Part shown: positions 1-39,195 of the stretch, piece after piece | How the letters are laid out: the number at the start of each line of letters is the position of its first letter | Numbering within the stretch: the stretch's first letter is position 1 | Sequence record: MT740315.1 | Strand: one strand, 5' to 3' | DNA length: 39,195 nucleotides | Source: Escherichia phage JEP4 | Notes under the pieces: generated by a model | The model's database searches: none | The model's input: the letters and a program-made list of their open reading frames with translations, nothing else | Told to the model about the DNA's origin: nothing | Made by a program: the position numbers and the translations under genes

Positions 1-489
1 ATGGCAGCACCAAAGGGCAACCGATTTTGGGAGGCCCGCAGTAGTCATGGGCGAAACCCTAAATTCGAATCGCCTGAGGCGCTGTGGGCTGCTTGTTGTG
101 AATACTTCGAGTGGGTGGAAACTAACCCGCTATGGGAGATGAAGGCGTTCTCGTATCAGGGTGAAGTGATACAAGAGCCTATCGCCAAGATGCGAGCGAT
201 GACCATCACCGGACTCACTCTGTTCATTGATGTGACGCTTGAAACATGGCGCACATATCGCCTGCGAGAAGATTTATCTGAAGTCGTTACGCGAGCAGAG
301 CAGGTCATCTACGACCAGAAATTCTCTGGCGCAGCCGCTGACCTTCTCAACGCTAATATCATCGCCCGTGATTTGGGCCTCAAAGAGCAGTCGCAAGTTG
401 AAGACGTGACACCTGATAAGGGAGATCGCGATAAGCGACGCTCTCGTATCAAGGAGCTATTCAACCGTGGAACTGGACGCGATTCTTGA
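1..489 (+). CDS. Terminase small subunit (P22 gp3-like)
   Basis: 162-aa ORF directly upstream of and overlapping the large terminase ORF; size and position match P22-family TerS. Confidence 0.8.
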
Positions 490-6650: not shown

Positions 6651-7092
6651 TCTCGTTCTAAAGGCTTTACGAAAAGCCGGGCTGTATTCCAATGCCACGT
6701 TGACAGATGCCGACCCTCAGGCAATTGAAGATGCCATTAATGACCTCGAAGACATGATGGCAGCATGGCAGGCGAAAGGTATCGAGCTTGGATATCAGTT
6801 TGCTGATACAGAAAACGGCATCATGCCGTTACCTGACGATGATTCAGGTATCCCTGCATGGGCAAATGATGGCGTCGCTTTGAAACTCGCTGTGCAAGTG
6901 TGCATGGATAACGTCATTCAGCCGTCGGATGCTCTCCTTACCGCTGCTGACAGCGCATATCAGACAATCTGCATCGCTTTAACCAAAATACCACCACTTG
7001 AGCGGCGAAATGACATGCCTCGCGGTAGTGGTAACAAAAGCGCGTTTACGTGGAATCGGTTTTACATCGAGAAAGATGAACCGAGTACGTGA
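6631..7092 (+). CDS. Head completion / portal-binding protein (P22 gp4-like)
   Basis: 153 aa; assigned by conserved P22 gene order 5-4-10-26-14-7-20-16. Confidence 0.6.
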   Translation: MAKTKGDLVLKALRKAGLYSNATLTDADPQAIEDAINDLEDMMAAWQAKGIELGYQFADTENGIMPLPDDDSGIPAWANDGVALKLAVQVCMDNVIQPSDALLTAADSAYQTICIALTKIPPLERRNDMPRGSGNKSAFTWNRFYIEKDEPST

Positions 7093-26529: not shown

Positions 26530-26662
26530 TTTTGGGAACTCCTGGCTGATTAAGTACGTCGATGAGTCGTTTCCATCCGTCACGTAATTTACGGGTGATT
26601 CGTTCAAGTAAAGATTCGGAAGGGCAGCCAGCAACAGGCCACCCTGCAATGGCATATTGCAT
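26522..26662 (-). CDS. cIII: CIII-like protease inhibitor (46 aa)
   Basis: MQYAIAGWPVAGCPSESLLERITRKLRDGWKRLIDVLNQPGVPKNG matches lambda CIII; ORF-track 26722 start is an extension. Confidence 0.75.
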   Translation of the reverse strand: MQYAIAGWPVAGCPSESLLERITRKLRDGWKRLIDVLNQPGVPKNG

Positions 26663-26722
26663 GGTGTGCTCCTTATTTATACATAACGAAAACGCCTCGA
26701 GTGAAGCGTTATTGGTATGCAT

Positions 26723-34798: not shown

Positions 34799-35447
34799 TG
34801 GCAGCAAATACCGGAATATTTGGGTAGTTGGCGATCTGCACGGATGCTACACGAACCTGATGAAAAAACTGGAGACGATAGGATTCGACATCAAAAAAGA
34901 CCTGCTTATCTCGGTTGGCGATTTGGTCGATCGCGGTACAGAGAACGTCGAATGCCTGGAATTAATCACATTCCCCTGGTTCAGAGCTGTACGTGGAAAC
35001 CATGAGCACATGATGATTGATGGCTTATCAGAGCGTGGAAACGTCAATCACTGGCTGCTTAATGGCGGTGTCTGGTTCTTTAATCTCGATTACGACAAAG
35101 AAATTCTGGCTAAAGCTCTTGCCCATAAAGCAGAAGAACTTCCGTTAATCATCGAACTGGTGAGCAAAGGTAAAAAATATGTCATCTGCCACGCCGATTA
35201 TCCTTGTGACGAATACGAATTTGGAAAGCCAGTTGATCATCAGCAGGTAATCTGGAACCGCGAACGAATCAGCAACTCACAAGACGGGATCGTGAAAGAA
35301 ATTAAAGGCGCGGACACGTTTATCTTTGGTCATACGCCAGCAGTGAAACCACTTAAATTTGCCAACCAAATGTATATCGATACCGGCGCAGTGTTCTGCG
35401 GAAACCTCACATTGATTCAGGTACAGGGAGAAGGCGCGTGGGCATAA
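34776..35447 (+). CDS. Ser/Thr protein phosphatase (lambda NinI/PPase-type)
   Basis: Metallophosphatase motifs GDLHGC, GDLVDRG, GNHE; matches lambda phosphatase as recalled. Confidence 0.9.
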
Positions 35448-35926
35448 GAGAACTAAACCTCACCAAAGAACAGCATGAGTGGCTGAATGGCTGGCTTGAA
35501 CTGTGGGGCGCATGGGTTTATTCAGGTCGTCTGGAAAAGCGCATGAGCAGCGTAATAGCGAAGTTCATGGAGAGCGTAGAGCCGGGAAGAGTTATGACAA
35601 GGCCAATGTGCAATGATGATGATGGAATGTTGATTTCTCAGGTCGTCGATTCCGTCATGTGCATTGACAAGAAAGCCTTTGGCATCCTCCTCAGCTACTA
35701 CGCCCACGGTTCTTCCAAGCACGCCATTGCATCTTACTATCATCGCGTCGCAAGACCTCGCAAGATGTTATGCCGGGGCGGCGGGCGCATTCAAAAACCA
35801 TCGCTCGCAACCTGTCGTCGGGAAGTTGACGAAATCCTCAATGCCTCGTTGTTTATGATTTACCCGGTTCTGGATAGTGCGTTTAAAAACCGGAAACGTG
35901 TAGAGAAAATTAAACATGTAGCGTAG
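35438..35926 (+). CDS. Late-gene antiterminator Q (non-lambda, phage-82/QuuD-like family)
   Basis: GTG start with GGGAGAAGG SD; WLELWGAWV and [10 protein letters not shown] resemble recalled QuuD (WGAW, RPQCCDDDAM); sits directly upstream of late promoter region and lysis genes. Confidence 0.65.
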
Positions 35927-37874: not shown

Positions 37875-37898
37875 AGCCTCGCATTCGCGGGGCTTTTT
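37875..37898 (+). terminator. Rho-independent terminator downstream of lysis cassette
   Basis: GCCTCGC-attc-GCGGGGC followed by TTTTTT. Confidence 0.6.
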
Positions 37899-38046
37899 TA
37901 CATCTGCAGTAAACCGCGCATCGCAGCGCGTAACAATCCCGAGTCTTTCAGAAAGCTGAGCCTGAGAACTGCCGTATATGGTGGCGACCATCTCGGGGCG
38001 GCTTTTCTGTGCGAACAGGCTCATCTTTCTAAAAGGTAAAGACGCT

Positions 38047-38565
38047 ATGAATCATCAATTGGCTAATCTCGATTTCCGGGACATGGTGGTTGTTTCTGGT
38101 GATCGCGTGATCACAACCTCCCGCAAGGTAGCAGCTTACTTCGACAAGCAGCATCACCACATCATTCAGAAAATCGAAAAGCTAGACTGTTCGGATGAAT
38201 TTCTAACCAGCAACTTTTCGCGGGTTACCTATGAACACAAGGGTAATCAGTATGTTGAATATGAAATTTCCAAAGACGGCGCGATGTACATCATCATGTC
38301 GTTTACCGGCAAAAAAGCTGCCGCCATCAAAGAGGCGTTTATCAAAGCATTTAATTGGATGCGTGACAGGCTGATGGAGATGGCTCACTCATACCAAAGA
38401 GAGCACAACGAGTTAATGCTGGAGTTCATGAAGGAAAAGGATGTTGCCAGTATGTCAGGACGCTTGCTGAACCGCTGGGGCAGGATCAAAAAACCGCAAC
38501 TCATAGCAAGAATCAAAAGGCTTGAGCAGCAGGCGCAAATATCGATCCCCGGACTGCCAAAGTGA
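38047..38565 (+). CDS. rha: Phage regulatory protein Rha
   Basis: Start MNHQLANLDFRDMVVVSGDRVITTSRKVAAYFDKQHHHIIQKIEKL (Rha N-domain pattern); position after lysis genes as in P22; ORF-track start 37978 is an extension. Confidence 0.7.
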   Translation: MNHQLANLDFRDMVVVSGDRVITTSRKVAAYFDKQHHHIIQKIEKLDCSDEFLTSNFSRVTYEHKGNQYVEYEISKDGAMYIIMSFTGKKAAAIKEAFIKAFNWMRDRLMEMAHSYQREHNELMLEFMKEKDVASMSGRLLNRWGRIKKPQLIARIKRLEQQAQISIPGLPK

Positions 38566-38917
38566 CCATTCCAAAGCCCATCTACGGGTGGGCTTGATAA
38601 TGAAACCGTGATTTACATCCCCACAATCCGGGTATGTAAAAGATAGTTCAGGCGAGAACAGATTTAACTAAATCTGTGCACCACCAGTTACGGCAGTACC
38701 ACGAAGCAACCCAAGCCAGTAAGTGGGGAAATAACACTGGCAGCCACTGAAAGATGAACCTCCAGCCTTATGGCAAAAAAGATTCTTTGTGGTGGCGGAC
38801 TGATGGAAAGACATCGGTTATTGCAGAGGCCATTCAATGAGTGGTCTCGACAATGGCTTATACCCTACACGGGATAACTTAACTGACATCCCTTTTAACG
38901 GATAAACGGAGCCAACA

Positions 38918-39160
38918 ATGGCAGAGATTATTCCCATGACTGAAGAACAGAAATTCCAGTTAGAGATTTATAAACTGGTCATGAACCAGAATGCAGCCGC
39001 AGAAGAAGCATTTCAATTCATTGGCACTGACGAACTGAAGCTTGAGCTATTCAAAATTCACTTCCAGTCAGGCGGCGCTAATTCAGATATCACGACCCGT
39101 ACTATCGAAGCGGTGCGTAAATCGAAGGAAGCGTTAGACCTGTTCACTACCGGAGCATGA
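38918..39160 (+). CDS. Hypothetical protein (80 aa) upstream of small terminase
   Basis: ORF with GGAG SD; last gene before the permutation point. Confidence 0.4.
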   Translation: MAEIIPMTEEQKFQLEIYKLVMNQNAAAEEAFQFIGTDELKLELFKIHFQSGGANSDITTRTIEAVRKSKEALDLFTTGA

Positions 39161-39195
39161 TGCTCAACCTGAAATAACAACTAAGTGAGATGAAT

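Follow-up and report, generated by a model that had tools for sequence, protein, structure and literature searches.

The 39,195-nucleotide (nt) DNA of Escherichia phage JEP4 (MT740315.1), referred to below in its full length as the window, is a P22-like (Lederbergvirus-type) genome written as a circle, such that the end of the window joins its start. Close to this end, downstream of the lysis genes, lies a spacer of 352 nt (38566-38917), flanked by rha (38047-38565) and by an open reading frame (ORF) of 80 codons (38918-39160), all on the + strand. The initial annotation of this region described a structured spacer of about 350 bp without a long ORF, beginning with a hairpin after rha, followed by an unassigned 80-aa gene just ahead of the small terminase gene, and suggested that the spacer could carry a late-operon regulatory element. 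In the present analysis, the gene is assigned to the DUF2560 family and the spacer is interpreted as a probable slot for accessory genes, in which a family of stem-loops may take part in the processing or stabilization of the late mRNA.

The gene order in this part of the window runs from Rz, the last lysis gene, through an Sf6 gene 65-type gene of 50 aa (phrog_11822), a hairpin that resembles a terminator and has a T-run (37875-37894), and rha to the spacer and the 80-aa ORF. The accessory late-region gene rha, which matches the Pfam profiles Phage_pRha (1e-23) and ORF11CD3 (8e-24), ends in a stop codon that abuts the first element of the spacer. Based on BLAST pieces and alignments, the spacer was delimited into five modules, each on the + strand: hairpin A (38565-38604), module B (38605-38687), a core of 128 nt (38688-38815; TTACGGCAG...GGAAAGACATC), hairpin D (38817-38857) and a conserved tail (38858-38917; GCTTATACCC...GGATAAACGGAGCCAACA). 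The small terminase gene gp3 occupies positions 1-489 (+ strand; Pfam GP3_package, 6e-33); since the window is a circular permutation, the 80-aa ORF does sit just before it, with 35 nt between the stop codon of the ORF and gp3 across the junction. The gene order of the relative APC_JM3.2 is identical to that of the window.

The Shine-Dalgarno sequence reported for the 80-aa ORF is a GGAG in the tail (38908-38911), six nt ahead of the ATG. The predicted protein matches Pfam DUF2560 (PF10834) with 147.7 bits (cutoff 25; E 1.1e-43) over the entire profile, residues 5-76 aligning with positions 1-72 of 72, and belongs to PHROG 571 (phrog_571), for which the listed function is unknown. Counterparts of the same length and in the same position are hkbM of HK620, gp67 of Sf6 and orf80 of P22. 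The gene thus proved to be real, conserved and indeed uncharacterized, while the label "unassigned" does not hold, the gene being already covered by DUF2560, PHROG 571 and P22 orf80. A homology search of 5.8 billion proteins returned 93 clusters, among which many entries are truncated or chimeric and all of the named organisms are Enterobacterales (Escherichia, Salmonella, Shimwellia and Serratia); farther relatives, with 41-45% identity, are present in Citrobacter and Pantoea. At every locus inspected, DUF2560 follows lysis or accessory genes and precedes the terminase, sometimes with one or two small genes in between, and this position is conserved in the window, HK620, Sf6, APC_JM3.2, P22, prophages of Serratia, Shimwellia, Citrobacter and Pantoea, and metagenomic relatives. 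Across 47 colinear relatives, on which all diversity values given here are based, nucleotide diversity (pi) in DUF2560 is 0.095 at codon position 3 and 0.022 at positions 1 and 2, a roughly fourfold difference, as expected for an ORF that is translated and under purifying selection. An AlphaFold (AF2) model of the protein consists of four helices (pLDDT, the predicted local distance difference test, 77.6), and a sequence search of the PDB, a Foldseek comparison of this model with the PDB and the literature were all uninformative as to function. By all appearances, the 80-aa ORF is a real late-operon gene and an ordinary member of a known, uncharacterized family.

Annotated lengths of DUF2560 proteins vary between phages. 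In SF6- and L-type phages, a deletion in the tail joins a spurious 35-codon spacer ORF (window equivalent 38770-38877) in frame to DUF2560, giving rise to a 118-aa annotation such as protein P0003 of Salmonella phage SF6, and other records contain versions of 105-129 aa that result from unrelated N- or C-terminal extensions. In phage HK97 (L004, about 1893-1980), the spacer is retained, but DUF2560 is reduced to its initial ~27 codons, and the gene for the HNH endonuclease gp74 comes directly after them; this is evidently a truncated remnant at a mosaic joint.

The spacer itself is both structured and conserved. Its predicted RNA fold (-113.8 kcal/mol) is well below that of shuffled sequences (-87.5 ± 4.7 kcal/mol; z = -5.56, none of 100 shuffles being as good), in agreement with the initial annotation, and it is matched in 205 phage records at 80-99% identity. 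These relatives include P22-like phages as well as HK97, mEp234/235, HK140 and HK446, which are HK97-type siphoviruses with unrelated terminases. Part of the spacer was found in 2293 of 5426 complete E. coli genomes (~40%), mostly unannotated among the records listed. Diversity within the spacer is approximately at the level of non-synonymous sites and three to seven times lower than at the neighbouring third codon positions, with pi values of 0.030 for the core, 0.022 for hairpin D and 0.014 for the tail, the lowest in the region, versus 0.095 for the third positions of DUF2560. Module B is a lineage-specific insert which occurs in 32 of 126 distinct contexts (e.g., HK620, Sf6 and APC_JM3.2) and is absent from HK97, L and P22; it contains two further hairpins, at 38612-38640 and 38658-38677 (inverted repeats I4 and I5), with fold z-scores of -2.4 and -3.6.

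The absence of a long ORF from the spacer was borne out, the longest frames being 35 aa (+) and 48-49 aa (-), and these small ORFs are broken by natural variants, namely ATG to ATA, TTATGG to TTAAGG or TGATGG, and an A-run of five, six or seven residues; none of them has a Pfam or PHROG match. The loss of start codons and the indels in the A-run indicate that the spacer is non-coding.

The hairpin after rha was found as described, AAGCCCA (38574-38580) pairing with TGGGCTT (38589-38595), and the pairing extends outward as far as CATT/AATG, such that a lower stem (38567-70/38599-602) supports an upper stem (38574-82/38587-95). This hairpin A has a paralogue in hairpin D, a second copy of the gene-trailing stem-loop, which comprises a 7-bp lower stem, a CA/GA internal loop, a 10-bp upper stem and an AAU loop. 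Both elements, of ~40 nt, follow the pattern CATTxCA-stem-loop-GATAATG, with a lower stem CATTA/TAATG (ATTG/CAAT in hairpin D), a 2x2 CA/GA loop, an upper stem of 9-10 bp and a loop of 3-6 nt. The same architecture, with altered stems, is kept in prophage copies of Citrobacter, Pantoea, Serratia and Shimwellia and in phages Ayreon and JLK-2012.

Covariation supports the predicted pairing. In an alignment of 23 hand-picked hairpin sequences (A4), 93.1% of cells are paired and 12 of 17 pairs have changed on both sides, with slid partners being paired in 30-50% of cells; of 500 shuffles, none reached the observed value on four of five measures and one did on the fifth. An alignment of 72 distinct sequences (A6), made with a covariance model (CM R1) that had been built from the 23, gave 94.2% paired cells, compensatory changes in 14 of 17 pairs and a covariation score of 0.477, compared with 0.212 in shuffles and no more than 0.117 in slid controls (0/500 shuffles as good; slid controls at most 53% paired), although the way in which both alignments were made inflates these pairing statistics somewhat. 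When the 39-kb window was searched with CM R1, exactly two strong matches were obtained, both within the spacer and both on the + strand.

Several observations concern the strand on which the hairpin forms. The CM R1 scores are 59.5 bits (+) versus 18.2 bits (-) for hairpin D and 54.7 bits (+) versus 13 bits (-) for hairpin A, and folding is similarly asymmetric, with -21.4 kcal/mol (z -5.5) on the + strand versus -10.2 kcal/mol (z -2.6) on the - strand for hairpin D and -18.4 kcal/mol (z -4.4) versus -12.8 kcal/mol (z -1.8) for hairpin A. One pair of the stem is a U.G wobble in 56 of the 72 sequences, and a pattern search of 1.25 Mb from related loci gave 218 copies, every one on the same strand as the late operon and almost all between -250 and +700 nt from the core. 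On the strength of these scores, the retained wobble, the uniform orientation and the fold asymmetry, the hairpin is judged to be sense-strand specific.

The hairpin is also placed in a characteristic manner with respect to genes. Where an ORF of at least 40 codons lies upstream, as in 22 contexts, the distance from its stop codon to the start of the hairpin is no more than 2 nt in 14, and the ORFs ahead of the hairpin end in 19 different C-terminal peptides, grouped as about a dozen unrelated genes. A scan with a degenerate pattern recovered 86 more viral contigs, with 35 distinct hairpin sequences, in which no core lies within 700 nt downstream; here, an Rz1-like LysC gene lies ahead of the hairpin, and behind it come Terminase_2-type small terminases or ORFs of terminase size that are likely terminases. 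It is apparent from these arrangements that the hairpin marks the boundary between lysis or accessory genes and packaging genes in phages with different terminases. Two same-strand CATTACA...GATAATG hairpins, 80-1700 nt apart, were further observed in the unrelated viral contigs L306, L291, L298, L283, L258, L322 and L314, and hairpin-flanked cassettes thus seem to occur outside of the P22/HK97 group.

Two simple functions for the hairpin were considered and rejected. Neither GAUAAUGAAACC behind hairpin A nor GACAAUGGCUUA behind hairpin D contains a U-tract, and in the terminator scan the sole site is 37875-37894, ahead of rha; the hairpin is therefore not an intrinsic terminator. An AUG within the hairpin was discarded as a conserved start codon, as the downstream mini-ORFs differ (MKP*, MAYTLHGIT* and P22 orf25) and the Shimwellia copy lacks the AUG. 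An Rfam search of the spacer with E values up to 10 revealed no counterpart of the hairpin, returning only noise and a weak match to Proteo-phage-1 (see below), and neither the hairpin family nor a discrete core with a fixed junction was encountered in Rfam or in the papers searched.

The core behaves as a discrete mosaic unit. A scan of viral contigs with an 18-mer of the core yielded 120 further loci, and across 126 distinct contexts the core is near-invariant, with sharp junctions on both sides. At least five junction classes begin exactly after ...GACATC (GGAAAGACATC, 38815), and at least five classes are found upstream. Position 38815 is followed by hairpin D in 86 loci, as in the window, by a Sf6 gene 66-type insert in 21 loci, and by three other small-gene inserts. 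The Sf6 gene 66-type insert corresponds to Pfam Phage_gp49_66 and is annotated as "anti-CRISPR" in phage Huey (L021, 1427-1807). Detailed examination of four insert-bearing loci (Sf6, L009, L080 and L028) showed that the insert closes with a terminator of its own and/or a second-type copy of the hairpin, after which the common tail resumes. Hairpin A of the Stx-type phage JLK-2012 adjoins the tail with nothing in between, and in Ayreon the tail likewise adjoins a hairpin; the arrangement in JLK-2012 indicates that module B, the core and hairpin D act together as a single inserted cassette.

The same slot is known from P22 as the orf25-pid-orf80 locus, where it has been described as a moron insertion site whose flanks are common to several phages (Cenens et al. 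2013, PMC3573128; Wolput et al. 2022, PMC8835761). P22 resembles the window in that its rha precedes the same core and hairpin D (identity of 92.6% over 38690-38876), with orf80, i.e., DUF2560, further downstream. In P22 and BTP1 the opposite-strand moron pid lies between hairpin D and orf80, and Cenens et al. (2013, PMC3573128) describe pid as a moron at a site that is without an insert in PS34 and holds different inserts in other phages. The window differs from P22 in possessing hairpin A and module B, which P22 lacks, and in lacking pid or any other insert, like PS34; no gene is found between its core and hairpin D. The window accordingly has the empty, PS34-like form of the slot and no moron there. 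The DUF2560 family and the P22 pid/orf25-orf80 moron site were thus known beforehand, and neither the conserved core nor the family of hairpins is described in the searched parts of either report (PMC3573128; PMC8835761).

Other cargo was noted in this slot. A Serratia prophage relative (L015, 1871-2152) carries a gene of the Acb2/Tad1-hairpin family between the lysis genes and DUF2560, and the lysis-to-DUF2560 slot may be a hot spot for anti-defence cargo. At locus L080, an int-alpA RNA motif (6828-6890; RF02996, 42 bits, gathering cutoff 35.8) lies directly after the core, ahead of an 80-aa insert gene without a family match.

Taken together, we favour a reading in which the gene is DUF2560, the spacer is a conserved, untranslated segment of the late transcript and a moron slot, and the hairpins are elements that process or stabilize the late mRNA and serve as recombination linkers; to this combination as a whole we assign a probability of roughly 0.55. 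Its basis is conservation, non-coding status, covarying structure, strand bias, position, modular exchange and a fixed cargo junction, all of which are apparent from the comparisons of sequences, and from these we infer both the role of the hairpins in RNA processing or stability and that in recombination. In the late mRNA, the hairpins would act as cistron-end processing or 3'-stabilizing structures, and they could separate the lysis/accessory message from the packaging/head message of a single operon, allowing independent decay or translation. At the DNA level, the hairpin flanks, the core and the tail would offer short homologies for swaps of accessory cassettes between phages.

In terms of architecture, the hairpins are reminiscent of the RNase III sites of T7 and of repetitive extragenic palindromic (REP)-type 3' stabilizers, these being sense-strand intercistronic stem-loops in which an internal loop separates the upper from the lower stem and no U-tract follows. 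The comparison is one of architecture alone: there is no sequence similarity, and the hairpin helix (7 + 10 bp with a 2x2 internal loop) is, at 17 bp, shorter. Furthermore, the hairpins occupy a single genomic slot, in which the window has two copies. A second parallel is provided by the "boundary sequences" (bsq) of lambdoid phages, likewise short conserved sequences at the junctions of exchangeable modules, of which the Sf6 record annotates bsq7 in the neighbouring Rz. None is annotated in the spacer in that record, and the hairpins differ from bsq in additionally having a structure supported by covariation and a bias for one strand, neither of which would be required of a sequence serving purely as a homology linker. 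A literature search on boundary sequences and a search of the epsilon34 genome paper turned up no mention of the spacer.

A number of points weigh against this interpretation. The RNA function of the hairpins is inferential; they lack the U-tract of an intrinsic terminator, and a helix of 17 bp with a small internal loop is shorter than the classical substrates of RNase III, an enzyme that cleaves double-stranded RNA of about two helical turns. The 72-sequence alignment was fitted to the model and the 23-sequence alignment was assembled by eye. The low diversity of the spacer could partly reflect mosaic exchange and recent spread, and DUF2560 has no structural or sequence relative of known function in the PDB and Foldseek searches. 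Finally, the core is devoid of predicted structure, covariation and motif, which makes its role in the favoured explanation weak. Folded alone, the core is not unusually structured (z -1.2 on the + strand and -0.8 on the - strand), RNAalifold returned a covariation term of 0 with none of 24 pairs compensatory, and the core was on these grounds rejected as a structured RNA. Inspection by eye for Chi and integration host factor (IHF) sites in the core revealed only Chi-like strings matching at 7 of 8 positions, which are not conserved in relatives. At its 3' end, a small hairpin (38798-38819, + strand; ACUGAUG-GAAAGA-CAUCGGU) that overlaps the moron junction and the foot of hairpin D folds with -10.3 kcal/mol (z -5.6), its changes being one-sided, from G-C to G-U only.

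Among the alternatives, the one closest to the initial annotation holds that the spacer exerts transcriptional control over DUF2560 and the terminase genes by an internal promoter, a terminator or an antitermination/leader RNA, the core being a reduced relative of the late-leader RNA Proteo-phage-1 (Rfam RF03044). Apart from the strong conservation of the core, its appeal derives from a block at 38710-38745 (+ strand), in which CCCAAGCCAG and GAAAUAACACUGGCAGCC match the 5' and 3' parts of the RF03044 consensus in order. The 3' block of the family, gaAAaAACaCCGGCAGCC, is represented by GAAAUAACACUGGCAGCC at 38728-38745, and some relatives carry an exact ...ACACCGGCAGCC. A GGUGGCG-GAC block and a hairpin with a GGAAAGAC loop are also present in the core, ordered as in extended true elements. 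The Rfam score is nevertheless 16.8 bits (E 1.2-5.3), far below the gathering cutoff of 42 and the 52-88 bits of true members, and both hairpins of the family are missing, the covariance model alignment giving 6 + 6 nt for 28 + 26 model positions.

True Proteo-phage-1 RNAs outrun the 82-nt Rfam model, as they covary over about 170-240 nt, end in an intrinsic terminator and often have tRNA genes downstream; RF03044 seems to capture no more than the 5' third of a longer leader RNA with a terminator at its end. Extended loci were located at about 4001-4245 in L255 (phiAH14a), at about 3501-3671 in L256 (Solano) and in L145-L205. In the Pseudomonas phages phiAH14a and Solano, the element lies between the nin/late-regulator region and the first late genes, a position like that of the PR'-6S RNA-tR' segment of lambda, which would suit a control element. 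True members are thus terminated and occupy the late-leader position of Pseudomonas-type phages, whereas the core lies in mid-operon.

More sensitive comparisons gave a divided result. A nhmmer profile of 46 true elements has a single match in the window, at 38726-38751 (E 0.048), and the extended covariance model R2 finds its best match at 38677-38807 (11.2 bits, E about 0.13; next 7.6 bits). With the shared 16-mer masked in gapped alignments, similarity upstream of it is not above that of shuffles (95 of 200 being as good), while the downstream part exceeds shuffles on the mean (20.4 vs 15.1 ± 1.3; 0/200), its maximum being reached by 13 of 200. The reciprocal nhmmer comparison of the core with Proteo-phage-1 is biased by how the loci were fetched. 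Homology is thus suggestive, a lead and not family membership, and it is not statistically established.

Control of the promoter or terminator type fares no better. A consensus scan for sigma-70 promoters and terminators found no such site in 38566-39195, and the expression table supplementing the BTP1 prophage transcriptome contains no non-coding RNA (ncRNA) between rha and pid, which makes an independently expressed small RNA (sRNA) in lysogens unlikely; likewise, the accessible part of a review of phage sRNAs mentions none in the rha-DUF2560 slot. Given these negatives and the lack of a U-tract, late-operon control is not supported as stated in the initial annotation. The window encodes a Q homologue (35438-35926), and Q-type antitermination set up at PR' already spans such a distance. 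We therefore consider transcriptional control by the spacer to be rather unlikely.

An equally doubtful alternative views the spacer as evolutionary debris, composed of recombination scars and decayed gene ends, its conservation resulting from recent horizontal spread and from its use as crossover homology in the absence of any function at the RNA level. The highly mosaic architecture with its sharp junctions, the truncated DUF2560 start in HK97, a core devoid of structure and motif, and identities of 92-98%, typical of shared lambdoid modules, would all be explained in this manner. Debris would not, however, account for compensatory changes in the hairpins of Escherichia, Salmonella, Citrobacter, Pantoea, Serratia and Shimwellia phages and of many core-less contigs, nor for strand specificity with retained G.U pairs, nor for a diversity three to seven times below that of adjacent third codon positions.

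Far less probable is the proposal that the hairpins are DNA-level sites, i.e., single-stranded DNA folds or palindromes, for a cassette recombinase or nuclease in the manner of integron attC sites. Units of a gene and a trailing hairpin do exist, some phages have inserts flanked by two same-strand hairpins, and the hairpins are imperfect with conserved outer sequences. Against this, no dedicated recombinase is tied to the slot in the 12 annotated records and three gene-called contigs inspected, so that an integrase, one hallmark of attC systems, is lacking at these loci, and the outer sequences CATTACA/GATAATG are unlike the R''/R' sites of attC. The post-core junctions, moreover, lie at GACATC, outside of the hairpins, and orientation follows transcription in all copies. 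A concealed gene in the spacer, whether for a small protein or for an sRNA with its own transcription, is similarly improbable: there are ORFs of 28 and 35 codons (+) and 48-49 codons (-), the 35-codon ORF is part of the 118-aa annotation in SF6-type phages, and P22 orf25 is annotated from the ATG of hairpin D, but the variants described above disrupt every candidate frame, orf25 spans only nine codons in the window, and the searches of Pfam and PHROG, the promoter scan and the BTP1 data offer no match, promoter or ncRNA.

Some further features of the window were noted. A 20-nt inverted repeat just upstream of the rha start (37945-37964 and 38016-38035; 90% complementary, arms 51 nt apart) could make the rha start region inaccessible. 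In the interval downstream of DUF2560 (39161-39195), the small gene known as hkbN in HK620, gp68 in Sf6 and orf59c in P22 is absent, and only a 6-codon mini-ORF that overlaps the DUF2560 stop codon is left before gp3. An Rfam scan of the entire window at the gathering cutoffs yielded solely a full-length match to the lambda cIII thermoregulator RNA (RF01804, 88.5 bits) at 26617-26675 on the - strand, outside of the spacer, and a scan for tRNA and tmRNA genes in the window found none.

Returning to the reading that we favour, with DUF2560 behind a conserved moron slot and the hairpins as putative mRNA elements and recombination linkers, a bolder version can be formulated, which we regard as speculative and improbable. 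Here, the lysis-to-packaging junction of enterobacterial lambdoid phages would harbour a dedicated cis-acting RNA system, with the stem-loop as a processing or protein-binding signal that defines exchangeable cassettes, and the core as a functional, miniaturized relative of Proteo-phage-1 that secures, in cis, the expression of the following morons or of DUF2560 and the terminase.

The spacer element is very common and yet unannotated in most of the records listed. Accessory cargo of P22-like and HK97-like phages, such as pid, the Sf6 gp66-type genes and the Acb2/Tad1-hairpin gene, is housed in the slot between lysis and terminase genes. The hairpin at cassette ends and the fixed junction after the core together provide concrete landmarks for finding accessory and anti-defence genes in prophages. 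The same landmarks may be of use as payload insertion sites in P22-type vectors, and in studying how a 20-kb late transcript is split between lysis genes and structural genes.

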